From positions 79,546,001 to 79,610,000 of the forward strand of contig CM059438.1 in the NCBI GenBank assembly GCA_030390025.1: a stretch of DNA of 64,000 bases. Direction: 5' to 3'. This document shows, piece by piece, positions 4,337 through 52,736 of the stretch (positions within the stretch are counted from its first letter, which is position 1; each line of letters starts with the position of its first letter). Under the pieces are notes generated by a model. The model saw nothing but the letters and a program-made list of their open reading frames with translations, ran no database searches and was not told the DNA's origin. A program made the position numbers and the translations under genes. This DNA is from Squalus acanthias (taxonomy: Eukaryota).

Positions 4337-4724
4337 GTAAGAACTGCAAGAATTCATTTAATTGTACAAGCAAATATTCAGATACTAGGAAACATTAAAA
4401 ATATAGACTTTTTAAAATCTATTGCAAGTTTTAAAACCTAAAACTTCAAAGTACACACTACACTGAATTAAGTTCTTTATTTTAAACTTCCATTTTTCTT
4501 TCTCATCTCCCTATACAATGCACTGACAAAGGATGAGGAGAGAATGGGAAGATCTGATTTTAGTTGTCTGCTAACATTACTTTGCCTTGGTTGGTAGGAT
4601 TTGCAGAAGAGTGACTTAGGGCTAAATTTCCTTCTCATTTTCTTTCTTCCACTATGGAACAGTTCCTGGATTCGGCTCACCTCCCAACAGCTGACATCAG
4701 GAATTCAGATGAAATCAAACCAGT

Positions 4725-4971
4725 GGCCCATCAGGGTGTGCCCTATACTCTGAGAGGCCAGGGCCCATCAGTGTGTGCCCTATACTCTGAGAGGCCAGGG
4801 CCCATCAGGATGTGCCCTATACTCTGAGGCCAGGGCCCATCAGTGTGTGGCCCTATACTCTGAGAGGCCAGGGCCCATCAGGATGTGCCCTATACTCTGA
4901 GAGGCCAGGGCCCATCAGTGTGTGGCCTATACTCTGAGGCCAGGGCCCATCAGGGTGTGCCCTATACTCTG
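4725..4971. repeat. Minisatellite, ~7 copies of a 35-38 bp unit
   Basis: Unit ggcccatcag(g/t)(g/a)tgtgccctatactctgagaggccag repeated head-to-tail with small indels. Confidence 0.95.
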
Positions 4972-9292: not shown

Positions 9293-9409
9293 ATGGTTGT
9301 ACCCACCAGTCAAGTGTGGAGAGAGTTTCAGCTGTAACAATGGAGGGCTTTGCACTGATGGATTCTGGGGTGCCAATTGTACCTGCATGCCAGGCTTTAC
9401 CGGAGAAAG
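9293..9409 (+). CDS. CRB2: CRB2 internal exon, EGF-like repeat (missed by the ORF track)
   Basis: taattttttcag|ATGG ... GAAAG|gtaatg. Translated by hand: (E)WLYPPVKCGESFSCNNGGLCTDGFWGANCTCMPGFTGE(R). 117 nt, phase 2/2, matching both neighbours. Confidence 0.93.
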
Positions 9410-12860: not shown

Positions 12861-13789
12861 CACATATCCAGCAACTCCTGCTATAAGTACACATATGTCG
12901 TGCCCCCTATGAAGCTGGTTATAGGAACAGGCTTGGATGTGATGACTTTCCTTCCCCCTCCACCCACACCTGTAGCCAAATAGTCTGCTGACAGTCACCA
13001 CTGAGGCTTCCACCTGAATGGTGACTTCAGGTGGGACAAACACTTGCTAATGCCTTCAGGACAGTGGAGAAAACGAGCAAAAATTTATAAAGAAGAAAAT
13101 ACTCACCTACCACCTGTTAGAAGTGCGCCAATGTATTGGTCATCATATCTAAACACAAACATCTCCAGACAAATTCCATCTTGTAATTGGGATGTTTATT
13201 CAGTCACTCCATCCTCACAGGGGACAGGTTGTACTCTGAATTATCACACATGATTGAAAAGTAAAGTCATTCATCAAGACAATAGATCTGAATAAGTTCT
13301 GGATGCCGTGAGTCTCTTATGGAGTCTTCAGCTGGAAGTGGGAGTCGTGTGCTCCAGAAAGTTTACATTTATCAAAGTATTGCCCTAGAAATGTTAAAAA
13401 TGGCACAACCTACTTTATTAATTGAAGGTATGGATGTGATTACTTTGAAATTAATTTAAAACCTTTTAAGTGTCTTAGAGGTTTGGAATGTAACCAGTTT
13501 TTCCTTACTATGAGAAAAAGGAAATTATAAACCATTGCCTTGAGTGAAAGGCTTCATATTATTGGTGCTAAAAGACGGCATTTCTAAACTAGGGTTTTTT
13601 TTACATAAAGTACTGAACAATGTTGTCAGTTGCATTTGTGTGAATTCCAGTCTGTAGGAAACGAACTGATAGACATTACAAATGACTAGCAGTCTGAACC
13701 ACACCAGATCATTTTGGGAAAGGGACTGGTTTGTCAAATTCGTATGGTCTCTCTTTACTGAATTTCCTCCTCAAACTTTTTTTTTGAAG

Positions 13790-13916
13790 ATGTGAACAAG
13801 AAGTCAATGAGTGTGACCCAAACCCCTGCCAGAATGGAGGGACCTGCCAGGACCTGGTCAACAAGTTTGAATGCATTTGTGGAGCCAATTTCGCGGGCGA
13901 ACAGTGCGAGATTGAC
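13790..13916 (+). CDS. CRB2: CRB2 last EGF exon (missed by the ORF track)
   Basis: tttttttttgaag|ATGT ... ATTGAC|gtaagc. Peptide (R)[42 protein letters not shown]. 127 nt, phase 2 in, phase 0 out. Confidence 0.96.
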
Positions 13917-14036
13917 GTAAGCGACCTTTCTTTCTTCTGCTCAATGTTGCTTTGGCAAAATCTTTTTCAGTTCTTGTCCTATCTAATCCTGCACATGGAC
14001 ACCGAGGAGCCTGAAACAGAGTTTGTCTGGCGCTAG
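13917..14036 (+). CDS. CRB2: Alternative C-terminus by read-through of the last EGF exon (CRB1-B-like TM and acidic tail)
   Basis: In frame: [39 protein letters not shown]. Closely matches the human CRB1 alternative tail as recalled (VSSLSFYVSLLFWQNLFQLLSYLILRMNDEPVVEWGEQEDY). Confidence 0.85.
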
Positions 14037-14377
14037 ATTTGCTCAAGTCCTTCCAAATCTGTGTACCAGGGAGGGATGTGTTGTGACAATATGTATGGAA
14101 TACTATACAAGTAAAAAAAAAACATTTTTCAATCCTGTTGGAAGTTTGTAGGCAAATCTTTGGTGGTCCTAATGTTTCACAACTGATGTTGTCCAGCAGT
14201 AGAATGGCTACAATAATTAGTTTGTCCTGTTGAACACATGTTGGAATCGGAGCTGACACCCCAGTCTACTCCCCAAATGTGTGGAGGCCTCCACCATTCT
14301 CAGTCAGGTTACTGTGCAAAGTATTTAATTGAGGCAGAGCACTCTCATTTTATCAGTCTTTTCTCTGCTAAGGTTCT

Positions 14378-14383
14378 AATAAA
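14378..14383 (+). terminator. Candidate intronic poly(A) signal for the read-through isoform
   Basis: AATAAA ~340 nt after the stop at 14036, followed by U/GU-containing sequence. Position is suggestive only. Confidence 0.4.
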
Positions 14384-14529
14384 TTGTGGGTCTCCCCTGC
14401 CAGTATTATCTTACGTTGTATTCCTGCTCCGAGATCCACTGCCAGTTCACAAAGGAATAGGAAAAAATTAAAGTGTAGTCCGACTGCTAGATGGAAAGTA
14501 CAATTTCACTGATGTTAAAGTCACATTAG

Positions 14530-14840
14530 CACATAAAAGTAAAAACATGGAAACAGGCCATTTGGCCCAACCAGTCCAGGTCAGCGTTTACCCTCCACGC
14601 AAGCAAATAGTTCGAATCACATTTACTCACCCTGTTCCCATATCCAGTCAATTCCTTTCCTTCATCCACCGAACCAATCCAATCTTGAATGTTGGCACTT
14701 TCTGCCTCAACCACTAGCCCTGGAACTAAGTTTCACAACCTCACAGCTCTGTGTGAAGAGGCTTCTCCTGTCCTCAGTTCGAAATCTCTTACGTTTAAAA
14801 TCATGCTTAAGTGGCTCCTTAATCTTGACTCCATAACTAC
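14530..14840 (-). mobile_element. Old CR1 LINE 3' fragment
   Basis: caggccatttggccca tail motif. Translated remnants RRSLFTQ and VEAESA. Confidence 0.7.
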
Positions 14841-15429
14841 GGTCTTGATACCCCTGAACTGCACTAGTGCAGGTGCATCTAGTGGAAGCTCCTAGTCTGG
14901 TTTGTGTACTTATGCTGTTGATTGCCAAGTCATCACACTGTGATTTTCAGGTATCTAGGAGTTAACTACAGTCATTAACAATTTACGTACACAAACCATA
15001 CCTTCCCAAGATTGATTTCCACCATGAAAATGGACCATTTTCCTAACAAATGGTCCTGGTAAGCATTTCTCTAATGGTTCCACTTCATTAATCATCTATC
15101 TGTGCACATTGGGGAAAGAAGTATTTTTAAAGCTGCAGTGTCCCATAGTTGGCACAGTCAGAGTTTGAAGGTGCAAGAGATTTATCCAAAACTAGAAGAT
15201 TAAAGTGATGCTACAAGTAGCACTCAGTAAGATTTCAATTGTCAATCTAAAGAATTGATTTTGCCGAAGCAAAATCCCAGCCATTTTTCCCTAAAATAAG
15301 ATGGTTGTAAAAGCAAACTTGCAGTAAATTAGAAACTCAAAACCTGTTGAAGAAAAGAGCCCAAGTACATTGTGCAAAACAAGTTACAGCAACGGCACTG
15401 ATGCTGCAACTATTCTGTCTATTAAAGCT

Positions 15430-16120
15430 TCATAGAAATTTTCAGCACAGGAGGCCATTCGACTCATCGTGTCTGTGCCGGCCGGAAAAGAGCTATCCAG
15501 CTTAATCCCACTTTCCAGTTCTTGGTCCGTAGCCTTGTAGGTTACGGCACTTCAAGTGCATATCCAAGTACTTTTTAAATGCGATGAGGGTTTCTGCCTC
15601 TACCACCCTTTCAGGCAGTGTTTTCCAGACCCCCACCACCCTCTGGATGAAAAAATTTCTCCTCAACTCCACTCCAATCCTTCTACCAATTACTTTAACT
15701 CTATGCCCCATGGTTATTGACCTCTCTGCTAAAGGAAATAGGTCCTTCCTATCCACTCTATCTAGGCCCCTCAAAATTTTATACACCTCAATTCAATCTC
15801 CCCTCAGCCTCCTCTGTTCCAAAGAAAACCCCAGCCTATCCAATCTTTCCTCATAGCTAAAATTTTCCAGTCCTGGCAACATCCTCATAAATCTCCTCTG
15901 TATCCTCTCTCGTGCAATCACATCTTTCCTGTAATGTGGTGACCAGAGCTATACTAGCTGTGGCTTGACTAGTGTTTTATACAGTTCTAGCATAACCTCC
16001 CTGCTCTTATATTCTATGCCTCGGCTAATAAAGGAAAGTATCCCGTATGCCTTCTTAACCACCTTATCTCCCTGTCCTGCTACCTGCAGGGATCTGTGGA
16101 CACGCACTCCAAGGTCCCTC
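15430..16120 (-). mobile_element. CR1 LINE 3' fragment
   Basis: ORF MYKILRGLDRVDRKDLFPLAE...RRNFFIQRVVGVWKTLPERVVEA is a CR1 ORF2 C-terminus. Confidence 0.9.
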
Positions 16121-18890
16121 TGTTTGTACAGGTTCAGGTTGAATCATTGCATATACACTTTGCACCTTTTACTACTTTGACTCTTGCAGCTCCAGGACAG
16201 AACATTGCGTGCCCTATTTTATCTAGTAAAAGACTAGCACTAGGTAGAAGGACTTGAAGCCAAGTCTGTGTTGCAAATATGATTAACATTTACAGCAAAT
16301 GTTTGCTCAAATAAATACCTTTGATTAACCTGCTAGGATTTCATGGGTTGATGATTTTCAACGGAACTTGAATGCAATCATTTCACTTACGAGGCCAAGT
16401 AACAAGAAAACTTCGAAGTTGAAATATTTTGGTTATTAAAATAGAACATTACCTTAATTTTAAAATAAATGGTTTTATAAAACCATGAGGAAAAACTGAC
16501 AATTATGAGCAGTTTTAGCCAAATTTATTGCTATTTTTGACTATGTCATCAACACTCTGGTGTTTCCTTTCAGTTTTATGCGCTGTATAACCACAAACTA
16601 ACCAGCTTGAATAAGAATATGCATGATAAAGAGCTGCATCAATCACTTTTACCTGGTCACATTCAGTTTATATAAAGAATATTTTTGGACTCTGAACATG
16701 GGTTGTAATTAAATGTACATAACAGAGTTTATATAACTACTTTGTAAATAGACTGTATGCTACATTATTTTTTAGATCTGCGGGGATCCATCAGTACTTT
16801 CATTCTAGGGTTTAGTGCCTGTTGGGTTGCTTGTTTAATCACATGGGAATGCTTGAATCTGCTATCATTCGAATGGTTCCTTCTTCCAAAATGCACTGCT
16901 TCTTCTACCCTGTTTTCACTGGATGGACTCATACTGTTGCTAATGTGGTCTTGGAATGGATACCTGCATGTGCTGGGTTCTTTAGGGTGACACTGGATTT
17001 AGTTTATGAAAGAGCATGGGATACCTTGGAGAATGCTAGTGTATGCAATCAAGTGAATATTATGAGAATGCCTTACTTGACATCCAGCATGACTTTCTTT
17101 ATGACCTTGGAATTTCTTATTCCTCATTTGCTAATGCTTCTCCTCAGCTCAGAACTGTTATAATGTACAGCGAAAAAAACATTTATCAGACTTGGGGAAT
17201 GTTCAAAGCATAAAGTGATTTACCTTAAGTATTTGCTTTTGTGTCTTCTTGTCTGTCATCTCTTTTTCTTCCACAAATATGTCATCTGCCTTTTGTTATT
17301 TATTTGGGCGGAGGATGTCTTCCAATCTTCCCTTCCTCTAATGAATTTATTGCCTCCAAAAGGACTAATCCTCTCTCGGTCAGGATGGCTGACAGCAGCT
17401 CATCAAAAGGTAGTTAGTCTAAGAATTTTTTTCTATGCAGTATATCTCACCAGAATGTGCCATTTGACTTATTCCTTCCTTGCTGGCAGGAGTATGGAAC
17501 TCCATGCTCATTGCCTTTTCAGGGAACCAGAGAAGCCCTTTTGGAAAGTTAATAAATGGGAGAGGATTAATCTGCTAGTAATACCTAGCTGTTGTGCATC
17601 TGTTCTCCCTTTAACACATTAACTGTTTCTGTCTTTAACAAACAGAGCTAATTTTTCCTATATGGCTTTTACTAAGGATTTACTCAATGACGACTAAAAT
17701 CATTTTTGTCTACTAACAGTTCCTGAATGACATGTTGTGCACTTCATTGGAATAAACCAATTTGTATGTTTTCTGCTGGCTGTGCTCCTTCATCTTCAAT
17801 GTGCTTTTTCCGTTTTCAGGGTAATGCTCTTTACCAGGATATGTTTTCAGAATGTATAAAGAGTTGGATCTTGCTCATACCAGTGGCACTTTACATAATT
17901 ATCCAACCCAGCAACACACGCACATGGTACTTCCTGCTGGGATGTTTATCTGAATAAGCATTGGTCCAGGTTTACAAACAGATGTGACTGACAGTTATTT
18001 CAGCAAGGATGGCATTAATCTTCTGTCACCGATGGGATTGTGGCATTAATTGGTAATCTCAGAGACACATGGCTGTGTGTTTTATCACGCTGCTTCTGCG
18101 TGTGCAATTAGCATTAAGATTAAGATATAGTGAAGGAGCTTATTATTCATGCAGCTTCATTATGTTAACAGCTTGTTACTCATCAGAAACATTAAAAAGA
18201 TGACACAAAGTATTACAGAAGTTGCAAACATTTGTTGGATGTTTACATTATGACTGTAAGTGCATCAATTAGAACAGTTCATGAATAATAGACTGTAGTT
18301 TGTCTAACTGCCATCTTCTCCTCACCTCAGTCTGGACCGACCAGACTTTAAAAAAAAAATCAGTCAATAAAACCGGACACAGAATGAAATGTAATAATAG
18401 TTCACTGGTGATGAACACTAAATTGAATTTGAAACCAGGAGTGACCTGCCCAATTATGGCTTCTTGATTTATCTGATCTTTTTTCAAACTTGATGCTGTC
18501 CTGCTCTGTGAGCTTTGGCCCTTCACTTAGGTTTCTCAATTAAAAAAAAAGAATTGGCTATTCCTGTTTCTTACCCCACAGAGACTCAAATTTGCCTTAA
18601 TTGTATCTGGTGCGCATAAAGATTTTTTCATTGCCTTGCCGTCACAACTAAAGGCAAAATAACAGGGATGGAGGAAATGAGGTGCATTTAAATTCTGGTG
18701 GCCTTATGGTGTGTACACCATTTTGCAGCAATTATATACATTGATGCTTCTTTCTAGTACAGGGTTAGGTACTTCTTTTCTGATACTGCAGTGTGGTATG
18801 TCAGTGCTGCAGAATGGGACATTCTTTTCAACTCGGTGTCAATAACTAATACTCTCAGGTCATGCACAGCACAAGATATATTTAGGGTAA

Positions 18891-21800
18891 AGATCTATCT
18901 TTGCCCCCTCCCCTTCCTCATCTACATGCTGCCCTTCAGCAACATCAAAGACATAGAAGATAGGAGCAGGAGTAGGCCATTCGGCCCCTCGAGCCTGTTC
19001 CGCCATTTAATGAGATCATGGCTGATCATCCAAATTCAGTACCCTGTCTGTCCCTGCTTTCTCCCCATATCCCTTGATCCCTTTAGCCTTAAGAAATATA
19101 TCTAACTCCTTCTTGAATATATTTAATGAATTGGCCTCAACTGCCTTCTGTAGTAGAGAATTCCACAGGTTCACCACTCTCTGGGTGAAGAAATTCCTCC
19201 TCATCTCAGTCCTAAATGGCTTACCCCTTATCCTTAGACTCTGACCCCTGGTTCTGGACTCACCCGCCATCAGGAACATCCTTCCTGCATCTAGTCTGTC
19301 TAGTCCTGTTAGAATTTTATAAGTTTCAATGAGATCCCCTCTCATTCTTCTAAACTCTAGCGAATATAAGCCTAATCGACCCAATCTCTCTTCATATGTC
19401 ATTCCTGCCATCCCAGGTATCAGTCTGGTGAATCTTCGCTGCACTCCCTCCATGGCAAGAACATCCTTCCTCAGATAAGGCGACCAAAACTGTACACAAT
19501 ACTCAAGGTGTGGTCTCACCAAGGCCCTGTACAACTGCAGCAAGACATCCTTGCTCCTGTACTCGAATCCTCTCGCTATGAAGGCCAACATACCATTTGC
19601 CTTCTTAACCGCCTGCTGCACCTGCATGTTTACCTTCAGCGACTGGTGCACAAGGACACCCAGGTCTCGTTGCACTTCCCCTTTTCCCAATCTATTGCCG
19701 TTCAGATAATAATCTGCCTTCCTGTTTTTGCCACCAAAGTGGATAACCTCGCATTTATCCACATTATACTGCATCTGCCCTGCATCTGCCCAATCACCCA
19801 ACCTGTCCAAATCATACTGGAGTTTCTCTGCATCCTCCTCACACCACACACACCCACCCAGCTTTGTGTCGTCTGCAAACTTGGAGATATTACATCTAGT
19901 TCCCTCGTCTAGATCATTAATATATATTGTGAATAACTGGGGTCCTAGCACCGATCCCTGCGGTACCCCACTAGTCACTGCCTGCCACTCGGAAAAAGAC
20001 CCGTTTATTCCAACTCTTTGCTTCCTGTCTGCCGACCAGTTCTCTATCCAAGTCAGTACCTTACCCCCAATCCCATGTGCTTTAACTTTGCATGCTAATC
20101 TCTTATGCGGGACCTTATCGAAAGCCTTCTGAAAGTCCAAATACACCACATCCACTGGTTCTCCCTTATCTATTCTACCAGTTACATCCTCAAAAAATTC
20201 CAGTAGGTTAGTCAATCATGATTTACCTTCTGTAAATCCATGTTGACTTTGTCCGATCCTGTCACTGTTTTCCAAGTGCTCTGCTATTACATCTTTTATA
20301 ATGGACTCTAGCATTTTCCCCACTACCGATGTCAGGCTATAATTCCCCGTTTTCTCTCTACCACCTTTTTTAAATAGTGGGAACTGTGCCAGAGTGTATA
20401 GAATTTTGGAAGATGACCAGCAATGCATCTACTATTTCTAGGGCCACTTCCTTAAGTACCCTAGGATGTAGATTATCAGGCCCTGGGGATTTATCGGCCT
20501 TCAATCCCTACAAATACTGATTTCATTCAGTTCCTCCCTCTCATTAGACGCTATGTTCCCCGACATCTCTGGGAGGTTATTTGAGTCCTCCTTTGTGAAA
20601 ACAGAACCAAAGTATGTATTTAATTGGTCTGCCATTTCTTTGTTCCCCATTATAATTTCCCCTGATTCTGACCGCAAGGGACCTACGCTTGACTTCACCA
20701 ATCTTTTTCTCTTCACATATCTATAGAAGCTTTTACAGTCAGTTTTTATGTTCCCTGCAAGCTCACTCTCATACTCTATTTTCCTCCTCTTAATTAATCC
20801 CTTTGTCCTCCTTTGCTGAATCCTAAACTGCTCCCAATCCTCAGGTTTGCTGCTTTTTTGGCCAATTTATATGTCCTCTCCTTGGATCTTATGCTATCCC
20901 TAATTTCCCTTGTTAGCCACGGTTGAGTCACCTTTTTTGTTTTATTTTTATGCCAAACAGGGATGAACAAATTCTGTAGTTCATCCATGCGATCTTTAAA
21001 TGTTTGCCATTGCCTATCCACTGTCAACCCTTTAAGTAACGCTCCATCCATCCTAGCCAACTCACGCCTCATACCATCGTAGTTTCCTTTATTTAAATTC
21101 AGGACCCTAGTCTCTGAGTCAACTACTTCACTCTCCATCTTAATGAAGAGTTCTATCATATTATGATCGCTCCTCCCCAAGGGGCCTCGCACAACAAGAT
21201 TGCTAATTAATCCTCTCTCATTACATAATACCCAGTCTAAGATGGCCTGATCTCTAATTGATTCCTCTACATATTGGTCCAGAAAACCATCCCGTATACA
21301 CTCTAGGAATTCCTCCTCCACAGTATTGTTACTAATTTGGTTAGCCCAATCTATATGTAGATTAAAGTCACCCATGATAACTGCTGTGCCCTTATTGCAC
21401 GCGTCTCTAATTTCCTGTTTAATGCCATCCCCAACCTCAGCATTACTGTTTGGGGGTCTGTATACAACTCCCACTAACGTTTTCTGCCCCTTGGTATTTC
21501 TCAGCTCTACCCATACAGATTCCACATCATCAGAGCTAATATCCTTCCTTACTATTGTGTTATGGCATCAGGTTTCACATATACGCTGACAACACCCAGA
21601 TCTACTTCTCCACCATCTCTCTTGACCCCTCCACTGCGGCTGTGTTGTCAGCCTGCATGTCTGCCATTTCATCGGGAAGACCGAAGCCATCGTCTTTGGC
21701 CCCCACTACCAACTCCGACTCCCTCCATACGCACTGTCTCAGGTTGAAGCTGTCTGTCCGCAATTTCCGCATCCTATTTTATCCCGAGCTGAGCTTCTGA

Positions 21801-22479
21801 CCCCACATCTTCTCCATCACAAAGACCATCTACTTCTGCCTTTGTAATATCGTGCGTCTCCATCCCTGCCTCAGCCCGTCTGTTGCCGAAACCCTCATCC
21901 ATGCCGTTGTCACCTCCAGACTGGACTATTCCAATGCTCTCCTGGCCAGCCTCCCATCCTCCATAAACCTCATCTCATCTAAGCTTGGTCTCATCTCATC
22001 CAAAACTCTGTTGCCCATATCCTAACCCGCACTCTCCAGTGCACCCATTAACCCTGTGCTTGCTGACCTATGTTGCCTCCCGGTGGTCCAATACCTCCAA
22101 TTCAAAATTCTCATCCTTATCTTCAAATCCCTTCATGGCCTCACCCCTCCCTATCTTTGTAACCTCCTTCAGCCCTACAACCCTTGGAGAACACGGCGTT
22201 CCTGTAACATTGGCCTCAGCCATCCCCACTTCCTTCGACCCACAATTGGCGGCCGTACCTTCAGCCATTTAGGCCCTAAGCTCTGGAATTCCCTCCCTAA
22301 ATCTCTTTTCCCCTTTAAGACCTTCCTTAAAAAAAAACTACCTCTTTGACCAAGCTTTTAGCTGCCTCCTAATACCTCCTTGGGTGGCTCGGTGTCAATG
22401 TTTGTCGGATTACGGTTGTGAAACATCTTTGGCTGTTTTTCTACATTAAAGGCGTTGTATAAATTCAAGTAGTTGTTGT
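18891..22479 (+). mobile_element. L2-clade LINE 3' portion split by a CR1 insertion (pieces ~18891-18946 and ~21560-22479)
   Basis: RT motif PLPFLIYMLPFSNI continues after the CR1 as YGIRFHIYADNTQIY. Downstream LPV..LQFKILILIFKSLHGLTPPYL...GGRTFS...PKLWNSLP, then a (gtt)n tail. Confidence 0.85.
18947..21557 (-). mobile_element. CR1 LINE, 5'-truncated, with endonuclease and RT fragments (frameshifted ORF2)
   Basis: APE motifs GVVYRPP, MGDFN, LDWVL, SDHN (20794-21525). RT motifs YLDFQKAFDKV, GVPQGSVLGP, FADD in a 399-aa ORF (19016-20215). Confidence 0.97.
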
Positions 22480-24295
22480 AAATTTGCCCCAACAGCGTAT
22501 TTCAACCCCCAGCTTCAGAAGTCATGACTTTGGGATCACTGATTGAGAGGTTAAACAATTGGTATTGCAATTGTTAACCACAAGAAACAGGGTTGAGCCT
22601 AACTGATTTCAATTATGACCCTTAGAGCCAATAGAAAAATGAGATTTAATTTCTTCTTTCTAGGTTTGATTCAACTTAGCCAGCTAAACTCAAACAGGAT
22701 AAACAGACTTAATGTCAAAAGGTTTATTGGAAGATCCCATTTTAAAAAACTTATTTTAATAGAATAGTATATTTAAATTTCCAACCCAATTTTAGATCAT
22801 CAATCCTGCTACACTAAGCTGTCATTCCCTATCTTCCACGACAGGAATGCAAGAGCTTTAAAACCATGTAAAGCACATGGATCTGACTCAGGCTGCTAGA
22901 AACAGTCAGGTCCTTCACGAGCTTGTGTCCTGTTTGATATACCCTGCCCGTGATTTGTTCTACACCACAACAGGGTTATAAAGGATAAAGACATTGATAG
23001 CTTTAGTACCTTCTCTTCCAGTCCACAGAGGATATTGGTCCTTGGGTGGAGGTGGGGTGGAGTTAAACAAACCTGGAAAGATGTGTAGTAAGAAATGCAT
23101 TCAGCCTCTGTTTTCAGGGCCAAGTTTGCATGGATCAGCTACTCTGGTACTAATAGTTAATAATGCACTTACAAAACTCCTGATACTAAATTATCAAAGT
23201 TAATTATTTTTCCACATTAATTAACTTTGTGGCAAACAATAATTTAACTCCTGCACATGTATGTGAAAATCAACATGGGACTTTAGGGTGAAAAGAAGAT
23301 AGCAACACAGATTTTACCAATAATGTAACTTGGTTTTCAACCAGTCCATATTATGAACCAATTACTGCTGATTGACCCAATTACTCCCATTTGCCAACAT
23401 TGTAAAGATGTTACTATTTCAGGATCAGCATTAAATAGAATACATCTGCAAACCAAATATCAAAGGCTGCTTTAAGAAATGTGTTAACAAAATGCAGTAC
23501 GTGTTGGTTTGGAGAAATTATTACTGCGTTGAAAATTTTAGTTGCAATGAAGGGGTGCTGGTTTGGTTAATTGATTTTGCCTCCTTATCAAGTACTTATT
23601 CCTCTGGGGTTGACCATTATCTCCAATTTGTCTCAGCAGGAAAATGCTCTCACCTTGTTTGCAATGCACACCTTGCTGAAGCTTTTACTGTATTAAGTAA
23701 TTAAATAGTAACTTTCCCATTAGCAAAGCATTTATGATTTGTGCATAAATGCGGTTCACAGTACTGTGTATTTGAATGTGTAATGTAGCCATATGGCTGG
23801 ATTTAGTCTTCTACAGACAATCTGCAGGGCTTCAGTAGTCCCGTTGTGGGGCCCACAAGGAGATAATCAAGCCCTGCTTCCAATCATTCATCAAATGGGA
23901 CTTCATCTACAGCAAGCTGGAAACTTGTGACCTCAAAAATCCACAAAACAGTAAGTATCCTATCCAAAGTTCTACTTCTTGAATATTTTTAGAATGATTA
24001 AATTATTTCCTAGACAGGCTCCTGAGGTGACACAAAGCCGTACTGGCATCTCTCATGCCCACTCACTATCCAATGATATTAGGGTTAAAATTCCTCTGTA
24101 CACTGGTTAGCTGTATTCCTGTGTGCAATAATTTAACAAAGTCAGTTTATTTGTAGTAAACTGTATAATTTGTAAGAGTCCCATTGGAGATGTCTGTTTT
24201 CGAGGCTGAGAGCTGTAGCTTATCAAGTCATTCTTCATAGCTCCTCTCTATAATACCAGGTATCAACCTCATTACAATTCTCTGCACCATCTCTA

Positions 24296-24875
24296 GGGCT
24301 TGCTTAGCCCCCTTATGACAAGTGCTAAGTGGATGATGCTTCTCGGCCTCCTCCTGAGGTGCTCACCATCACAGATGCCAGTCTTCAACCGAACTGATCT
24401 CATTCTACGTGACATCAAGAAACAGCTGAGTGCACTGGACACATCCAAGGCTACGGACCCCAACAACATCCTGGCTGTAGTGCTGAAGACCTGTGCTCCA
24501 GAACTAGCCATGCCCTTAGTCAAGCTGTTCCAGTACAGCTGCTCCAGTACAGCTGCAACACTGGCATCTATCTGAAAATGTGGCAAATTGCCCAGTTATG
24601 TCCTGTCCACAAAATGGACAAATCCAACCCTATCAATTACCGCACTATCAGCCTACTCCCAATTGTCAACAGTGTTATCAAGCAGCACTTACTCACCAAT
24701 GCTCAGTTTGGGTTCTGCTCGGACCACTCGGCTCCAGCCCCAGTTATTACAGCTTTGGCCCAAACATGGACATGAACTGAGTTCCAGAGGTGAGGGGAGA
24801 TTGACTGCCCTTGACCGTGTGCGCCACCAAGGAGCCTTAGTAAAACTGAAATCAATGGGGGTCGGGGGAAAACTT
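24296..24875 (+). mobile_element. Degenerate LINE RT fragment, probably the same family as 46481-49059
   Basis: LDTSKATDPNNILAVVLKTCAPELA, PVHK..KSNPINYRTISLL and QFGF are N-terminal RT motifs, with frameshifts. Confidence 0.8.
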
Positions 24876-26099
24876 CTTCACAAAACTGAACTTTGGTCCA
24901 GGACATTAACTAACTAGAAAAATAATGTTAATGATTTTAGTTCTTGCTTTTAAATGCCCATAGCAAACTGCAGCTAGTAACAATTCCACAGAGAGAGAAA
25001 AGAGGGAGATGTCATTCAGGTTCATATTGTCAAAATCTGTGGAATAGCTCCAGTAAATTATAACCTTATTTGGTTGTGTTTCAAATAGTTATTCATTTTT
25101 AGCATATTTAATAACTTAACTTAAGAAGAGAGACACTTTTGCTGCTTACAAAGAACAGTTCCAGTCTTTGTCAAACATGCACAAGTTGCAGGCTCTTAAA
25201 GAGCTTTTCAGCTCCACTGGCCAGATCCATCAAGAATGTGGTCTGTTGCGAGCGGCAGGTTGGAAGATTAAAGGTTAAAAGTAACTGAAAAAAGCAATAA
25301 TATCTCTGCATGACATCAGGGGTTAATGCTCTTTGACAGATGCATTGTTGAAACTTGAATAGGCAGAGAAAGTAACCCAAGGGCTCAGCAGGCAGGACAA
25401 TAATAGATTCCCTGCTTTAACTTAAATAGTTTCTAACCTGGTCTGAAACTAAGCAATAAAAAGGCAAATGTTGCAGAAAGTTACATTAAATTGCAAGCTG
25501 GAACACTCTGTTGCAGTTAAAATACAAAAATGGGGTTTCCAGTTCAAGGGTAGTTCGTTACTCTTAGACCTTTTGAAGCATTAAATGTTATCAAAATAAT
25601 TTTCTTTACAGATAAATCTGTGCACAAAGGCAATAACAGGAAACAATAGACACACAAAACCAGTAGATTTCACCTTTAATGGTGAGAGTACTCGGTGTAT
25701 TGCAGGGTATAGCACTAATTTCTGTGCACTGTACTTCTGAGAGATTGATAATGAGGTATTGGCCTGGCAAATTGAGTGACTGATCCCCTTAAAACTGCTT
25801 AATCAAGTGCAGCATTATAAGAGGCACAAGAAAAGCTAAATATAATGACCAGTAAAAAAAACACGTTATTAAATGCATTGAAATCACCATGAAGAGAAGT
25901 GATACAAGAACTGCTCCTACGTGAGTTTATGTATGCTGTTCTCTGTGGTACTTTATTATTCACATTAAAAAAAACTGTAGTATCTTTTTCTGAAAGTGTG
26001 GGTTTTGTTCGTTGCTATGTTGATTGAAATGGGTGAAAATCAACTTAAAGGATTACAAATTTACTACTGCCAGGAGTGCCATAATTATTAAAGACTATG

Positions 26100-26290
26100 T
26101 ACCCCTTACCCAAAAGGCTGTGGATACTGGTTCAATTGACATTTTCAAGATTGAGATCGATAGATTTATGTTAGTTAAGGGTATCAAAGGATATGGAGCA
26201 AAGGTGGATAAATGGAGTTAAGGTACAGATCAGCCATGATCTAACAGAATGGCAGAAGACTCAAGGGGCTGAATGGCCTATTCCTATTGC
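26100..26290 (+). mobile_element. CR1 3' tail fragment
   Basis: IFKIEIDRF...KGIKGYG remnant and aggggctgaatggcctattcct tail. Confidence 0.8.
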
Positions 26291-28117
26291 AAGTAAGGTC
26301 AGATTACCAAGAGTTTGGCAGCTAAACCTACTTCTTGGCCTTACTACAAACTTTGCATAATATTGTGACTATCAGGGCAAAATACAGGGGACATTTTGGG
26401 TGTCACCATGTGGTGGGGAGGGGAGGGGAGGGGAGGGAAGCATTTACAGCACCTTGGAGAGCTAATTTGGTTGGCTCAGATTTTGTGATGTACCCAGGAC
26501 TCAACTGGAGGATGGTAAATTCCTCAAGACGGTCTTTACCAGAGCACTTGGCTGTTTTTCCTATAATCTTGGTAGATTAATTTAACAGACAAATATCCAC
26601 CTTGCAATTCAACCTCCAACTTCTCAAAGTGCAGAGGTGAGGTTTTAGAAATGAAGCATGCTGCTGAGAAGGTTGGCTCAATGGGCACCAGCGTCTTCCA
26701 CAAGTGGCCATTCTTCCTGTGTACTTAGGGTTAGCAGGTAATTTTACCATGGAGACATTACAGCCACATTATCATCCTCTCCAGACATCCACACAGATGC
26801 ACTTTCCAGCAACATCATTGGATCAAGAACAGTAGCCAGAACATTGGCAGATTAGTTCCCTCCTTAATCCAAAAACATGGAGACCAATTGTGGCACCCAC
26901 AAACAGATTAGATGTGATCAGCTAATTTAGCACAAAGTGGGGCCTTTCTGGTCCAAATGGCTGAGTACCACAATTTGTGGTCCATTTCCAGCTATGGTAC
27001 TGGAGGAGCCACCTCTCTTTTTGGGAGAGAGGAACCATTACTCTTGCTCTTCTTTAGATTATAACCTCCCCTTCGTGCACAACTCCAATACTGAGAGGAA
27101 AGACAGATGAACCATTTGCAATATGTAACCACATGCCATCCATAAGAGCATGAGAACAGTGCAGATTGATTCATGGTCTAAAACCTTAACTCTGTTGAAG
27201 AGTTACCCTTCAGCCCCCTCCCCAAATCACCTGGTGAAACTTGTGTGGAAAATCACAACACAATCCCATGTTCACAAAGATGTACAATAAACCTTTTAAT
27301 TTAAACTAAAGTCACCAATTTACTTAAAAGGACACTTCCCATTTGAGAGAGATTTTCAGAATAGGCGCGTGCTGGAATAGCCAGGCCTAGGTGCTAGAAC
27401 ATAATTTTGGCCTTTTTAAGTTATTGATCCCTTTAAATGTTCATCATATGAAGAATAATTTAGTGGAATAGAACAAGTGGCAGGATGATCCATGATTTAA
27501 TCATTCTGTAACTACACTGGAAACTTACAGACACCGAGGACCCAATTAATGCCGAAAGTTCTCCTTTTGTTCCAGATGATAAGCATACCTGTATATCAAT
27601 TGGCTCAATCCTGTACAAGCCCACTGAAAGTGGGACATTCTTCTGTTTATGTGTGAGTAGATCATTCAGGTATGTATCTGGGGCCAGGGCAAGTGGTGGG
27701 GGACTGTTGTAATGGACACAAAATTCATTCCATCGATGAAGAATGAGATTTCTCAAAAGTACAAGCATTAAGTAAATCTGTGCCACACTTTCTCTGAATA
27801 GATCTCACAAGTGCCACTGGCATGGGTCAATGATTGTTTACTTTAAGGTACTCCAAGCCACATTATTAATTTGGTGTGTTCACACTATTGTTACTGTTTT
27901 ATTAACAATGCTCTGTATGATTTCTCTGTCTGTACTGTTTCCTTGTCCAGTGCTTTGTCTGTTGTGCTTTTGCTTCTGATATGGCCCCTTGCTTCTGATA
28001 TCTGCGTCATATAATTTTAGTCGATTCCAAGGAGATGGAGAGGTTACTATGAACAATGCATTTAACAGAATCTGCAGCGGTTTGCGGCCCACTTATTGTC
28101 TCCCATTGTCTTTACAG

Positions 28118-28339
28118 AGAGGGAAAAAGGCCGACCCTGTCCCGTTACTGGCAGTAGCTGTGCCGGTGGTGTGTGGGAGTGCGCTGCTGATTGTAATAGC
28201 TCTTATTTTTGTGGTTCTTACTGCCCGTAAAAAGCGCCAGACAGAAGGGACGTACAATCCAAGCCAACAGGAAGTGGCTGGGGCTCGACTGGAGATGGAT
28301 AGTGTCCTTAAAGTGCCACCCGAAGAGCGCTTGATATGA
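28118..28339 (+). CDS. CRB2: CRB2 terminal exon A: transmembrane helix plus canonical CRB2-type 37-aa tail
   Basis: ctcccattgtctttacag|AGA, phase 0. Peptide [77 protein letters not shown]-binding GTY and PDZ-binding ERLI present. [24 protein letters not shown] matches CRB2. Confidence 0.97.
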
Positions 28340-29384
28340 TTGCTTGATTGATTGAACGCTTAGAGGAAAAGATGCTCTTGTTTTGAGTAGACCTCATATC
28401 TGACATTACAGGTAGCATTTCTTCAGCAATATGCCTGCTCATGACTACTGATTCTTCTGACACACCGAGAAAATTCTCTCATTCTAGGCATCTGCTTCAT
28501 CGAGAGGTTGATATAATCCAATTTATGTTGGCTGTGCAATTTTCTCACAGTAACTGCAGCTAGTGAAACGTCTAGTGGGGAAATTCACGCTGAGTATGCT
28601 GCTCATTGCAATGTCACATGAATGACATGTAACTTTTTTATCTACTGAAGTCAACTAAGACAGATTCAAGCATTCCCATTTATGATACATCACCACCTCT
28701 GCTAAGATCACGTCCGTCTCAGAAGTAGCTTTTACAGGTGTCCCATTCAGCTATTCTAATCCTTCGCCAGCATGTTGCATTTTACTGAAAAGCTTTTAAA
28801 TAAGCTCGTGTTCTGACTGATATGAAATTATGGTGGAAATATTTTTTCATTTATTTAAATGAACTTTTAAAGTAATTTTAAGTCTTAAGTGAACCATGTG
28901 GGTTTTTTTTAAAAAAAGATAGAATGCCATGTAGCCTTGAAATTTAAATTGATTTAATCTAAAAAAAAAATCTGAACTATGTGTTAATGAAGGAGGCATT
29001 TGTCCAAATCTATATATAGGGTTATGCTGGAAAAAGGGTTCCATGTTAACATTCCGTGATGGTGTTCTTTACGCAAATGGATAGAAGTAATCTTCTTTGG
29101 GTCTGATGTCATTGTCTTATCTTTTCCATGTCTAATTAAAGGCAAGTTCACTATGAGCAAGTCTGTACACAGCTTGAAAGCACCTATGTTGTTGCATCAA
29201 CAGTTGTTACTGACAGACTCTGTCCCTGCCTATTCTATGAACAAACTGCTGTTGGTGAAAAATCTCCCAGTAAGGTCAGGATGAGGATTTGTTACTTGAG
29301 TCCAGATACACATTGCTGGACAAGGACAACAAACAGTGTAACTTTCTCACTTCCATTTTACTCAATGGTAATGTTCTACAACAG

Positions 29385-29606
29385 AAAGGAACCACCCAGA
29401 GAAATGACACTCTCATTATCGCTGGTTCTGTGGCTGCAGCTGGAGGACTTGTCATCTTCATCATCGCCATCATAGTTCTGGTGATCACTATGAGAAAGAA
29501 GAGGGCAACGCAGGGAACCTATAGCCCCAGTCGGCAGGAAAAGGATGGAGCAAGGGTGGAGATGTGGAACATAATGAAGCCTCCACCAACAGAAAGGCTT
29601 ATTTGA
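29385..29606 (+). CDS. CRB2: Alternative terminal exon B: transmembrane helix plus CRB1-type 37-aa tail
   Basis: gttctacaacag|AAA, phase 0. Peptide [73 protein letters not shown]. 222 nt, the same length as exon A, with no stops or frameshifts. Confidence 0.88.
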
Positions 29607-30330
29607 CTTTCATTAAAAACAGGAGACAATTAAACAGAAGCTTATTAATCTGTTTGGGACTGAAGACAATACATGGTTTCAGGTGGTAATGAGTGATCCA
29701 AAGTAGTTCAGTCCAGTTAAAACTAGAGTCTGGCACTAAGCATGGCTAAGCTGGTAAAATCTAAATTGGAAGTGTGTGGAAATAGATAAATCTCAGAGGA
29801 ACGTAACTGGTTAGAGTCAAAATATTTGATGCTCACAAATGCAATGCATGACATGATTTTACATTAGATATCTTAAATGTACACTGCAAAAAGTTTCAGG
29901 AACTTTCAAAATAACTTGCCTCCAATGTCACTTATTGTCTTTTGGCACAACTTGAATTAATTATAATTAACACCGTCAGCATTTGCGCTGCTTCTAAGAT
30001 TAACTACTGAAAAGATCAGTTTTACTTTTTCTGATTGATTACTTTCAAGGCAATTACAACTATACAGGTTTTTAATCAAATGCTTTGCTTCCACTTTGTT
30101 TACAGTAGTCTCCACAGTGTCGTTAATGGGACATAAAATGACAAACGCATTTTCAACATCATTCCTAAATTATGTAATGAACTGGTAGCAGTATTAAGAT
30201 TAATATGAGCACAGAAGACAGAATAATCACATATAAAACAGTGAGTTGTTGTCAAGTGAATTCTAGATTAGGAAAGAAAGACAATGAGTTCCAGTACTCA
30301 TACTCAAGTAGTATCCATTTCAATTTAGGG

Positions 30331-39600: not shown

Positions 39601-40225
39601 AAGAACACAAGAACATAAGAAATAGGAGCAGGAGTAGGTCATTCGGCCCTTTGAGCCTGCCCCGCCATTCAATGAGATCATGGCTGATCTTCTGCCTCAA
39701 CTCCATTCACCGGCCCTATCGCCATATCCCTTGATGCCCTTACTAGTCAGAAATCTATCAATCTCTGTCTTGAATATACCCAATGACTGAGCCTCCACAG
39801 CCCTCTGGGGTAGAGAATTCCAAAGATTCACCACCCTCTGTGTGAAGAAATTTCTTCTCATCTCGGTCCTGAATGGCCTACCCTTTATCCTGAGGCTGTG
39901 GCCCCTGGTTCTAGACTCCTCAGCCAAGGGAAACATTCTCCCAGCATCCACCCTATCAAGCCCTGTAATAATTTTGTATGCTTCAATGAGATCCCCTCTC
40001 ATTCTTCTGAATTCAAGAGAATACAGGCCTAGTTTACTCAATCTCTTCTCATACGACAGTCCCGCCATCCCAGGAATCAATCTCGTGAACCTTCGTTGCA
40101 CTCCCTCTATGGCAAGTATATCCTTCCTTAGGTAAGGAGACCAAAATTGTGCACAGTACTCCAGGTGTGGTCTCACCATGGCCCTATATAATTGGAGTAA
40201 GACTTCTTTACTCCTGTACTCAAAT
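39601..40225 (-). mobile_element. CR1 LINE 3' fragment
   Basis: ORF VRPHLEYCAQFWSPYLRKDI...RRNFFTQRVVNLWNSLP, with aagaacataagaa tail. Confidence 0.95.
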
Positions 40226-40334
40226 TGTTGTTGTTAACTTGTCTTTTGTAACATCAAAAGGTGTTATGCAGTGAGTATAACACAGCAGACCCAATGTATG
40301 CTGCACCATGGCTGCATGAGGTAATAATGTAAAC

Positions 40335-40590
40335 AACACCTCGCAAACCTGCGACCTCTACCACCTGCAAGTTCCCCTCCAAGTCACACACCAGCCTGAC
40401 TTGGAAATATATCGCCATTCCTTCATTGTCACTGGGTTAAAACCCTGGAACTCCCAACCTAACAGCACTGTGGGCGTACCTTCACCACACGGACTGCAGC
40501 GGTTCAAGGCGGCAGCTCACCACCACCTTCTCAAGGGCAATTAGGGATGGGCAATAAATGATGGCCACATCCCATAAACAAATAAAAAAA
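40335..40590 (+). mobile_element. 3' end of the 46481-49059 LINE family
   Basis: Near-identical to 48750-49059, including aagggcaattagggatgggcaataaatg and an A-rich tail. Confidence 0.88.
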
Positions 40591-40611
40591 GTAATGGGCT
40601 GGAGGCTTACT

Positions 40612-42579
40612 TAAGAACATAAGAAATAGGAGCAGGAGAAGGCCATTAGACCCTTCGAGCCTGCTCCGCCATTCAATGAGATCATGGCTGATCTTCTTCC
40701 TCATCTCCACTTTCCTGCACTATCCCCATATCCCTTGTTTCCCTTAATATTCAAAAATCTATCGATCTCGGTCTTGAATATACTTAATGACGGAGCCTCC
40801 ACAGCCCTCTGGGGTAGAGAATTCCAAAGATTCACCACCCTGAGTGAAAAAATTTCTCCTCCTCTCAGTCCTAAATGACTGACCCCTTATTCTGAGACTG
40901 TGACCTCTGGTTCTAAACTCCCCAGCCAGGGGAAACAGCCTCCCTGCATCTACCCTGTCAAGCCCTGTAAGAATTTTGTATGTTTCAATGAGGTCACCTC
41001 TCATTCTTCTAAACTCTAGAGAATATAGGCCTAGTCTACTTAATCTCTCCTCATAGGACAATCCCCCCTTCCCAGAAATCAGTCTGGTGAACCTTCGTTG
41101 CACTCCCTCTATGGCAAGTATATCCTTCCTTAGATAAGGAGACCAAAACTGTACACAATACTCCAGGTGTGGTCTCACCAGGGCCCAATAAGAGTCTTTA
41201 CTCTTATACTCAAATCCTCTTGTAATTAAGGCCAACATACCATTTGCTTTCCTAATTGCTTGCTGTACCTGCATGTTAACTTTCAGTGATTCGTGTACAA
41301 GGACACCCAGGTCCCTCTGAACACCAACATTTCCCAATCTCTCACCATTTAAAAAATACTCTGCTTTTCTATTTTTCCTACCAAAGTGGATAACTTCACA
41401 TTTCTCCACATTATATTCCATTTGCCATGTTCTTACCCACTCACTTAGCCTGTCTAAATACCCTTGCAGCCTCCTCACAACTTACATTCTTACCCAGCTT
41501 TGTATCATCAGCAAACCTGGATATATTACATTTGGTCCCCTCATCCAAATCATCGATGTAGATTGTGAATAGCTGAGGCCCAAGCACTGATCCTTGCGGT
41601 ACCCCACTAGTTACAGCCTGCCAACCTGAAAATGACCAGTTTATTCCTACTCTCTGTTTTCTGTCCGTTAACCAATCCTCAATCCATGCTAGCATATTAC
41701 CCCCAATCCCATGAGCCCTAATTTTGTTTAATAACCTCTTGTGTGGCACCTTATCGAATGCCTTCTGAAAATCCAAATACACCACATCCACTGGTTCCCC
41801 CTTATCTATTCTGCTAATTACAACCTCAAAAAACTCTTAACAGATTTGTCAAACATGATTTCCCTTTCATAAATCCGTGTTGACTCTGCCCAATCCTATT
41901 AATTTCAAAGTACCCTGTCACCACGTCCATAATAATAGATTCCAGCATTTTCCCTACTACTGATGTCAGGCTAACTGGTCTGCAGTTCTCCGTTTTCTCT
42001 CTCCCTCCTTTCTTAAATAGTGGGGCTACATTTGCTGCCTTCCAATTCGCGGGAACCGTTCTAGAATCTATGGAATTTTGGAAGATGACAACCAATGCAT
42101 CCACTATCTCTACAGCCACCTCTTTCAAAACCCTAGGATGTAGGCCATCGGGTCCAGGGGATTTATCGGCCCTCTGTCCCATTAATTTCTCCAGCACCAC
42201 TTCCCTTCCAATACCAACCACCTTCAGTTCCTCACCCTCGCCAGACCCCCCGGCTCTCCACCACCTCCGGAAAGCTCCCTGCGTTCTCCTCCGTGAAGAT
42301 AGCCATTTCCTTATTCCCCATTATAATTTCTCCTGTCTCAGCCTGTAATGGACCCACATTTACTTTCAATAATCTTTTCCTTTTTACATACCTATAGAAG
42401 CTTTAACAGTCTGTTTTTATGTCTCTCACTAGTTTACTCTCATATTCTATTTTCCCTTTCTTTATCAATTTCTTGGTCCTCCTTTGCTGAATTCTAAAAT
42501 TCTCCCAATCCTCAGGCTTACATTATAAGCCTTGACAACATTATGAGCCTCTTCCTTTGATCTAATACTATCTTTAACT
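40612..42579 (-). mobile_element. CR1 LINE, 5'-truncated, with frameshifted RT
   Basis: KSPGPDGLHPRVLKE, YLDFQKAFDKV, GVPQGSVLGP, FADD and RPHLEYCVQFW spread across three ORFs. A poly-G run follows at 42581. Confidence 0.96.
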
Positions 42580-46312: not shown

Positions 46313-49300
46313 GGGCCAGATTTTGCTGTAGCGGTGCATCTAACTACGTCTGCTGTTTGTTGCCCCAGCACCCTAGAGCTCAAAAAGTTTTTGCCGACAA
46401 AGTTGCTGAACGTGCAAGCTGATAACGGTGCAGCGAGGGAAACAGGACATCTGGCACCTGAGTGAACAGGGCAATTACAGGAACAGTGGCATAGTGGTTA
46501 TGTTACTGGACCAGTGATCCAGAGGCCTGGACTAACGATCCGGAGACGTGAGTTCAAATCCCACCTCAAATCCAAGTCGGCAGCTGGGGAATTTAAATTC
46601 AGTTAATTAAATAAATCTGGAATAAGAAGCTAGTATCAGTAATGGTGACCATGAAACTATCGGATTGTTGTAAAAACCCATCTGGTTCACTGATGTCCTT
46701 TTGGGAAGGAAATCTGCCGTCCTTACCTTACCAAACCGCTACGAGAAACAATAATATGAATAAATCCAGACAGACCACCCGGCATCGACCTAGGCACCGG
46801 CTTCGGACACGACAACGGCACACCCAGCCCAGTCAACCCTGCAAAGTCCTTCTCACTAACATCTGGGGACTTGTGCCAAAATTGGGAGAGCTGTCCCTCA
46901 GACTAGTCAAGCAACAGCCTGACATAGTCATACTCACAGAATCATACTTTTCAGCTGATGTCCCAGACTCCTCCATCATCATCCCTGGGTATGTCCTGTC
47001 CCACTGGCAGGACAGACCCACCAGGGGTGGCGGCACAGTGGTGTACAGTCGGGAGGGAGTGGTCCTGGGAGTCCTCAACATTGACTCCGGACCCCATGAA
47101 GTCTCATGGCTTCAGGTCAAGCATGGGCAAGGAAACCTCCTGCTGATTACCACCTACCACCCTCCTTCAGCTGATGAATCAGTACTCCTCCATGTTGAAC
47201 ACCACTTGGAAGAAGCACTGAGGATAGCAAGGGCACAGGATGTACTCTGGGTGGGGGACTTCAACGTCACTACTACTGACCGAGCTGGCCAAGTCCTGAA
47301 GGACATAGCTGCCAGACTGGGCCTGCGGCAGGTGGTGAGAGAACCAATACGAGGAAAAAACCTACTTGACCTCGTCCTCACCAATCTACCTGTCGCAGAT
47401 GCATCTGTCCATGACAGCATTGGTAGCAGTGACCACCGCACAGTCATTGTGGAGACGAAGTCCCGTCTTCACACTGAGGACACCCTCCATCGTGTTCTGT
47501 GGCACTACCACCGTGCTAAATAGGGATAGATACAGAACAGATCTAACAGCTCAAAACTGGGCATCCATGAGGCGCTGTGGGCCATCAGCAGCAGCAGAAT
47601 TGTATTTCACCACAATCTGTAACCTCATGGCCCGGCATATCTCTCACTCTACCATTACCATCAAGCCAGGTGACCAACCCTGGTTCAATGAGGAGTACAG
47701 AAGGGCATGCCAGGAGCAGCACCAGGCGTACCTAAAAATGAGGTGTCAACCTGGGGAAACTGCAACACAGGACTACATGCATGCTAAACAGCGGAAAGCA
47801 GCACGCTATAGACAGGGCTAAGCGATCCCACAACCAACGGATCAGATCCAAGCTCTGCAGTCCTGCCACATCCAGTCGTGAATGGTGGTGGACAATTAAA
47901 CAACTAACGGGGGGAGGAGGAGGCTCCATGAATATTCCCATCCTTAATGATGGCGGAGCACAGCACGAGTGCAAAAGACAAGGCTGAAGTGTTTGTAACC
48001 ATCTTCAGCCAGAAGTGCCAAAAGGTTGATCCATCTCGGCCTCCTCCTGAGGTCCCCATCTCAGCCCCAGGGCATCGATGCAGGAGTTCCTCAGGACAGT
48101 GTCCTACTACCCAACCATCTTCAGCTGCTTCATCAATGACCTTCCCTCTATCATAAGGTCAGATGTGGGGATGTTGGCTGATAATTGCACCGTGTTCAGT
48201 TCCATTCGCAACTCCTCAGAAAATGAAGCAGTCCATGCCCACATGCAGCAAGACCTGGACGACATTCAGGCTTGGGCTGATAAGTGGCAAGTAACATTCG
48301 CGCCACACAAGTGCCAGGCAATGACTATCTCGAACAAGCAAAAGTCTAACCACCTCCCCTTGACATTCAACAGCATTACCCTCGCTGAATCCCCCTCCAT
48401 CAACATCCTGGGGATCACCATTGACCAGAAACTTAACTGGATCAACCGCATAAATACTGTGGCAACAAGCGTGAGTCAGGGGCTGGGTATTCTGCGGCAA
48501 GTGAATACCCAAAGCCTTTCCACCATCTACAAGGCACAAGTCAGGATGGCATACTCTCCACTTGCCTGGATGAGTGCAGCTCCAACAACACTCAAGAAGC
48601 TCGACACCATCCAGGACAAAGCAGCCCACTTGACTGGCACCCCATCCACCACCTTCAACATTCACTCCCTCCACCACCGACGTACCGTGGCTGCAGTGTG
48701 TACCATCTAACAAGATACACTGCAGCAACTCGCCAAGGCTTCTTCAACAGCACCTCCCAAACCCGCGACCTCTACCACCTAGAAGGACAAGGGCAGCAGG
48801 TGCATGGGAAGACCATCACCTCAAAGTTCTCCTCCAAGTCATACACCACCCTGACTTGGAAATATATTACCGTTCCTTCATCATCACTGGGTCAAAATCC
48901 TGGAACTCCCTCCCTAACAGCACTGTGGAAGTACTTTCACCACACGGACTGCAGCGGTTCAAGAAGGTGGCTCACCACCATCTTCTCAAGGGCAATTAGG
49001 GATTGGCAATAAATGCTGGCCCTGCCAGCAACGCCCACATCCTGGAACGAATAAAAAAAGATCAACAGGGTATTTCCTTAAGCAATGAGATTTAAGGATT
49101 GGGAATAAACACATGAAGGACTGATAAGGAGGGTGACTTAAAGGGGTAAATTCAATGTTAAATCAGACATAGAAAGTGAAATAAAGAGGGAAAGAAAGAT
49201 TGGATTAAGAGAGAGAACAAAAGAGACAGAAAGGAAGAGTAAAAAAAACCTAACATTTAAAATTGACATTTTTAAAATCTCCAAAAATAATTTTCAACCT

Positions 49301-52600: not shown

Positions 52601-52736
52601 ATGTCACCGCTGTGGTGAGCTTCCAAATTGATTCTTTCCACTGTTCTCTAAAAATATTTACTCGAAGCTGGCGGGCAATTAAACAAAGTTGCTGCTTGAT
52701 GAACTTATACTTACAAATACGATAGACCTTGTTCAA

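Follow-up and report, generated by a model that had tools for sequence, protein, structure and literature searches.

The DNA analysed here, hereafter the window, is a stretch of 64,000 nt from the shark Squalus acanthias and is devoid of any N. It contains what we take, on sequence comparison, to be the 3' half of the shark CRB2 orthologue, as well as a frame on the opposite strand. The features are as follows, with A and B denoting the two terminal exons and X1, X4 and X11 sequencing runs:

2031-2590, forward strand: CRB2 ectodomain exon (laminin-G region), located by tblastn, 86% identical to the sevengill-shark protein P0309 and 33% to shark CRB1, with AG/GT ends and an open frame
4171-4336, forward strand: CRB2 ectodomain exon (EGF), located by tblastn, open frame
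6759-7626, forward strand: CRB2 ectodomain exon (laminin-G and EGF repeats), 93% identical to P0309, open frame
9293-9409, forward strand: penultimate EGF exon of CRB2, located by tblastn, open frame
13790-13916, forward strand: last EGF exon, with a phase-0 donor common to all downstream tails, joined to 28118 in run X11
13917-14036, forward strand: read-through tail of 39 aa, moderately hydrophobic, in frame past the donor at 13916, with an AATAAA at 14378
17820-17957, forward strand: candidate fourth phase-0 terminal exon, 45 aa and stop, acceptor ttttcag, with an X1 contig starting at 17820
28118-28339, forward strand: terminal exon A, transmembrane segment (TM) and CRB2/CRB3-type tail (Y10, P12, E16, ERLI)
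28340-30200 at least, forward strand: 3' UTR of the A isoform, unspliced through B in X1 (to 29680, the next piece to 30200), X4 and X11
29385-29606, forward strand: terminal exon B, TM and CRB1-type tail (Y10, P12, E16, ERLI)
61840-63237, reverse strand: long open frame that probably forms the final exon of a convergent DENND1 neighbour

The gene has the features of the Crumbs family: an ectodomain of EGF and laminin-G domains, a single TM and a 37-aa tail. Its ectodomain exons share 83-93% identity with P0309 and 33-56% with shark CRB1, and its ectodomain is closer to tetrapod CRB2 (47-50% identity) than to CRB1 (42-44%). A quick ectodomain tree set the window gene beside CRB1 (93, unstarred) with a long-branch warning, for which reason we preferred a mixture-model tree of 17 ectodomains; there the window gene falls with tetrapod CRB2 (88/90, unstarred) and the shark proteins resembling the contig C15 gene fall with platypus CRB1 (100/99). 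This second long Crumbs gene, CRB1, lies separately on C15 in the same genome. The frame at 61840-63237 had no naming match in the ESM Atlas or Pfam and no paralogous match elsewhere in the shark genome, and a DENN-domain exon occurs further along the window's contig (C14) on the same strand; a C-terminal motif and synteny suggest that the frame is DENND1A. Linkage of Crb2 and Dennd1a is described for mammals and chicken in the accessible part of PMC3100342.

As a preliminary description of the window had proposed, A and B are two intact phase-0 terminal exons of 222 nt each (73 aa followed by TGA), both preceded by an ...acag acceptor, placed 1267 nt apart from start to start, and both in frame with a single phase-0 donor (13916|gtaagc, the intron beginning at 13917). 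The five upstream exons join in one open frame that runs on into either of them. The two align without gaps and share 24/37 tail residues, but only 8/36 of the residues before the tail, 107/222 nucleotides and 7/32 of the codons specifying conserved residues, so that the duplication is indeed old, as had been claimed. Neither exon is a chance match, because searching the 3.7-Gb genome returned the self-match at E = 1.4e-40 and five tail exons in total. The FERM-binding residues Y10, P12 and E16, identified as such in PMC4718732, occur in both tails, each of which ends in ERLI; the tail of exon B matches the solved Drosophila Crumbs tail (Crumbs chain of PDB 4WSI/4YL8) at E = 3e-11. The acceptor of B is the weaker of the two (10/20 pyrimidines, as against 15/20 for A), and the only poly(A) signal between the exons is an ATTAAA at 29135, with the first downstream AATAAA at 32813. 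An in-frame ATG is found upstream of exon A, at 28049.

Transcript evidence came from contigs of four of the 20 listed runs, 14 of which count as RNA by guess only; the four, likewise guessed to be RNA and of unstated tissue, were compared with positions 13600-30200. The junction 13916>28118, one of two expected from the preliminary description, is present: a contig of run X11 joins the last EGF exon to exon A, and a contig match begins at 28118 in all four runs. The second, 13916>29385, was not among the joints listed for these four runs, in contigs, which drop rare forms. No contig breaks at 29385 in X1, X4 or X11; since single contigs cross this position unbroken, the A mRNA in these runs includes exon B in its 3' UTR. 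Run X6 has no listed pieces over exon B, which we do not count as evidence. The reading of A and B as alternative last exons is supported, as far as the exchange of tails on one ectodomain is concerned, by the isoform pairs, the conservation of exon B and the exon scan described below, but needs correcting in its geometry, because B had no 3' end of its own in the four runs: rather than each exon having a separate poly(A) site, the two share one terminal region, in which B is the distal and weak acceptor. The spliced form observed in this shark is A, and B is presumably spliced as well. Contigs of run X4 at 26448-28147 (depth 9-11.5) are intronic and run into exon A, and could reflect pre-mRNA or an internal start.

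Two further candidate endings precede exon A. The read-through tail is a paralogue of the exon-11 extension of CRB1, which is CRB1-B-like (the EGF exon with its read-through is 63% identical to that on C15), and the shark CRB1 model P0136 ends in this paralogous read-through of CRB1. The human CRB1-B tail presumably matches the shark read-through tail in sequence. Searching with the read-through peptide returned one CRB1-like protein from one candidate, a result silent on CRB2 read-through elsewhere. An X1 contig at 14012-14637 may be read-through UTR or pre-mRNA. The X1 contig that starts at the 17820 candidate exon carries 30 upstream letters, the same lead as in the contig at 28118, and the depths of the A contig (24.5) and the 17820 contig (5.75) together approximate that of the EGF exon (31.4); neither a paralogue nor a Pfam match was found for 17820-17957. 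Several CRB1/CRB2 database models (P0132, P0137, P0138, P0150 and P0106) have very short C-termini past the last EGF, one of which corresponds to splicing at an acceptor within exon B of CRB1 that is out of frame.

Searching longer proteins with exon B gave 83 matches among 210 candidates, from frogs, salamanders, turtles, lizards and birds. In 79 of these (two of them models fusing A to B) the ectodomain resembled Xenopus CRB2 more than platypus CRB1, while two were CRB1 and two were too short to assign. The tail of the window's exon B is retained at 36/37 residues in the horn shark, where the exon is 94% identical, and at 30-34/37 residues in eight tetrapods (frogs, salamanders, reptiles and birds); in the same eight, just 4-10/27 TM residues are retained, yet the segment stays hydrophobic. 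Among seven same-species pairs, six consisted of CRB2 isoforms that do not differ until the last EGF junction, past which they run into either A or B; the remaining pair, from platypus CRB1, has B tails only and differs at other places. Horn-shark CRB2 and four shark CRB1 pairs are likewise identical to this junction and then diverge into A or B, all of these pairs (7 CRB2, 4 shark CRB1) being automated gene models rather than validated transcripts. The A exon of the CRB1 locus, with five matches among 77 candidates, shows 92-97% identity in four sharks and, over a partial match, 86% in a chimaera. No mammalian or teleost CRB2-B occurred among the 83 matches, a set in which A-tailed cluster representatives hide B members, as happened to the horn-shark B isoform. 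Many bird proteins named 'CRUM1' (P0015-P0077) combine a CRB2-like ectodomain with a B tail and are likely systematically misnamed; they are no independent proof of splicing, because they look homology-based. To our knowledge, mammalian CRB1 and CRB2 have one ERLI exon per gene. The human CRB1/CRB2 transcript table in the accessible part of PMC5380682 has no alternative ERLI tail, and in this the human CRB2 variants differ from shark CRB2.

The conservation of the B tail as far as frogs and birds while the TM drifts is a protein-level pattern, and together with the intact frame and acceptor, the 94% identity to the horn-shark exon and the joining of B to the ectodomain in models of seven species, it argues against exon B being no longer spliced in this shark and surviving only as 3' UTR of the A mRNA. 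Such disuse would agree with the unbroken contig over 29385 in three of four runs, the lack of a listed B joint and the weak acceptor, but we consider it quite unlikely.

Genome searches with either exon placed the five tail exons at three loci: the window (C14), CRB1 (C15) and CRB3 (C22). CRB1 has the same order as the window, namely a last EGF exon with read-through, an A-type exon and a B-type exon, the canonical B-type exon starting 243 nt past the A-type stop and both being of phase 0. The presence of two tail exons in one Crumbs gene, the central claim of the preliminary description, is not peculiar to the window gene, since CRB1 has the same pair. The CRB3 locus has one A-type exon, and in the 30 kb examined there we found neither an EGF exon nor a B exon. 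Because Crumbs is convergent with a DENN-domain gene at each of the three loci, we regard them as duplicated blocks.

The history of the tails was examined in a tree of 48 TM-and-tail sequences over 64 columns, with long, presumably invertebrate, Crumbs proteins as outgroup. All 22 A-type rows (CRB2-A, CRB1-A, CRB3 including one hagfish CRB3) formed one clade (98/97, starred), and all 14 B-type rows (CRB1-B and CRB2-B) formed another (98/98, starred), in a bootstrap that is not fully settled. Exon A hence belongs with CRB2-A and CRB3, and exon B with the canonical last exon of CRB1, bearing out both type assignments; the tail-exon phylogeny, which had been suggested as a check, places B apart from A and not as its recent duplicate. 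Approximately unbiased (AU) tests rejected one clade per locus (p = 0.031 for CRB2, a modest value; p = 0.0024 for CRB1). As A groups with A and B with B, and per-locus clades are rejected, the A/B duplication predates the split of CRB1 and CRB2. This suggests that the tails by which the human Crumbs genes are now distinguished were at first alternative splice products of a single ancestral gene.

It is also conceivable that both tails are used while their layout is not ancestral, the exon having been duplicated in each paralogue separately, or copied between loci after the genome duplications. The alignments are short, the A exon of C14 is about equally similar to the B exon of C14 (24/37) and the A exon of C15 (25/37), and conversion between paralogues can imitate shared ancestry; still, the identical order and phase at both loci along with the shared read-through, the AU rejections and the position of hagfish CRB3 inside the A clade make such a history very unlikely.

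The CRB1 locus contains, in addition, a short unit nested in its last intron:

C15:68622906-68612985, reverse strand: CRB3-like unit nested inside the final CRB1 intron and made up of a signal-peptide exon, a stalk exon and exon A
L022:4906-4826, L021:6573-6521 and L021:5206-4985: exons of the nested unit, giving a complete CRB3-like protein

The exon phases of this unit equal those of CRB3 on C22, and annotations of two sharks name the unit 'crumbs homolog 3a/3-like'. In the tail tree, CRB1-A is sister to CRB3 (99/96), which fits a derivation of CRB3, as judged from sequence, from the short unit of a CRB1-like locus minus its ectodomain and exon B. Two teleost models, P0159 (Megalops) and P0256 (Periophthalmus, named 'crumbs homolog 3b'), join an A-type start to the B tail of CRB1, a hint that teleost crb1 still contains the nested unit and that what is called crb3b may be this unit.

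An exon B ending a separate short product, be it a CRB3-like gene nested in the intron or a tail peptide, soluble and initiated at a juxtamembrane Met, would have precedents in this nested unit, although the latter ends in exon A, in the Met ahead of the basic stretch in the CRB2-B tails listed, and in the intronic X4 contigs just upstream of exon A. A scan for signal-peptide and stalk exons was positive at C15 and C22, and so is able to detect such units, but found no signal-peptide exon at 14040-29384, from which we conclude, in agreement with the preliminary description, that no separate short gene ends in exon B. Aligning the sequence with that of the nested unit gave chance scores only, and B retains a full hydrophobic TM; we judge a short product highly improbable. 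A misassembly that placed a CRB1 exon behind CRB2, for which we found no supporting evidence, is hardly credible given that CRB1 has its own, different B exon on C15 (26/37 tail residues identical to B of the window), that contigs of three organism labels span A and B, and that the pair is modelled in other species.

We therefore favour, with a probability of roughly 0.84, an ancestral Crumbs locus with several tails that existed before the vertebrate genome duplications and was shared out among CRB1, CRB2 and CRB3, the donor of shark CRB2 still choosing between tails. Under this model, the donor at 13916 would select among A, B and read-through. Splicing to the proximal, stronger acceptor would produce the ERLI tail of CRB2 type; passing over it to the weaker acceptor of B, which lies distally inside the 3' UTR of A, would attach a TM and ERLI tail of CRB1 type to an unchanged ectodomain; and reading through the donor, with early polyadenylation at the AATAAA at 14378, would give a CRB1-B-like tail devoid of polarity motifs. 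The A/B pair would have arisen by one tandem exon duplication preceding the genome duplications that gave three CRB-DENND1 blocks. Shark CRB1 and CRB2 would each have retained read-through, A and B; CRB1 in addition carries the nested unit of signal peptide and stalk ending in A, and CRB3 would be the short unit alone. We infer that reciprocal losses in mammals, of A from CRB1 and of B from CRB2, left each of these paralogues with its own tail.

The switch would keep the ectodomain, which sets adhesion, constant and vary the TM together with the stretch of the tail that separates the FERM-binding motif from ERLI. Complexes of the Crumbs tail with PALS1 and with FERM domains are solved textbook structures. 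The binding behaviour of the A and B tails probably differs, and because both keep the core motifs, the difference would lie in tuning of partner affinity, phosphorylation or trafficking rather than in loss of PALS1 binding. The choice between A and B is plausibly regulated by tissue, retinal or neural, by analogy with CRB1 biology. At odds only somewhat better than even, we would extend the model to all vertebrate Crumbs C-termini: those of CRB1, CRB2/CRB3, CRB1-B and the short CRB3 would be regulated outputs of one pre-duplication locus, non-mammalian CRB2 would still switch between CRB2 and CRB1 tails by tissue or cell (e.g., retina versus kidney), the two tails would bind partners or be trafficked differently, and mammals would have fixed the switch by reciprocal exon loss.

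Subfunctionalisation, in which ancestral alternative exons become fixed in different paralogues after genome duplication, is an established model. The Crumbs case would depart from it in that the ancestral state persists in shark CRB1 and CRB2 and in amphibian, reptile and bird CRB2, and in that a third paralogue, CRB3, corresponds to the nested short unit. Both tails already occur on CRB2 ectodomains of the same orthology in RefSeq isoforms X1/X2 of Xenopus laevis (XP_018087310/XP_041429989) and Heterodontus (XP_067868625/XP_067868626), and likewise in CRB2 isoform models of Pelodiscus, Pogona and axolotl. As these parts are present in RefSeq models, what is new is the recognition of a layout that is shared and ancestral. 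The accessible parts of the reviews PMC11129452, PMC7456964, PMC5380682 and PMC9006659 give one tail per Crumbs gene, and in the full-text literature, outside subscription journals and supplements, we found no description of a second ERLI exon or of the A/B history. The arrangement belongs to a known class, in which alternative terminal exons are divided up following a genome duplication, and is apparently undescribed for Crumbs.

Two known systems are comparable, as far as the available portions of the sources go. CRB1-A and CRB1-B (Ray et al. 2020, PMC7335077) likewise place alternative C-termini on one ectodomain, and in human CRB1 an extension of 41 aa sits at the position matching the read-through (exon f, PMC5380682); CRB1-B, however, swaps the ERLI tail for one lacking the motifs (PMC7335077), whereas shark CRB2 would also alternate two motif-bearing tails. 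CRB3A and CRB3B, to whose clade exon A belongs, exchange C-termini by last-exon splicing (PMC7456964), but CRB3B, reported as mammalian, alters only the end (CLPI), in contrast to the exchange of the whole TM and 37-aa tail in the shark, where both forms end in ERLI.

If the favoured history holds, the tail and the ectodomain of Crumbs have separate histories, which bears on retinal dystrophy caused by CRB1 and on kidney and brain disease involving CRB2, and in sharks, amphibians, reptiles and birds the identity of the tail would be set by splicing. One ectodomain with two tails distinct since before the CRB1/CRB2 split would constitute a natural experiment on CRB1 versus CRB2 tail function, with a bearing on the use of CRB2 as a CRB1 substitute in gene therapy, a use treated in the accessible part of PMC5380682. 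Antibodies and probes directed at the tail, and orthology calls, can mistake CRB1 for CRB2 in chick and Xenopus. The model would also provide a concrete origin for CRB3 and a greater age for the CRB1-B tail.

The remainder of the window contains repeats. A 37-bp tandem repeat (6.9 copies) occupies 4720-4971 in a CRB2 intron, and an array of 30-bp units at 52736-54349 (53.9 copies, 93% matches) opens long low-complexity frames on both strands. Remains of LINE retrotransposons, recognised by reverse-transcriptase-like frames, lie at 15500-16250, 19019-21567, 39700-42320 and 46615-48750, the last including an endonuclease domain at 46615-47520.
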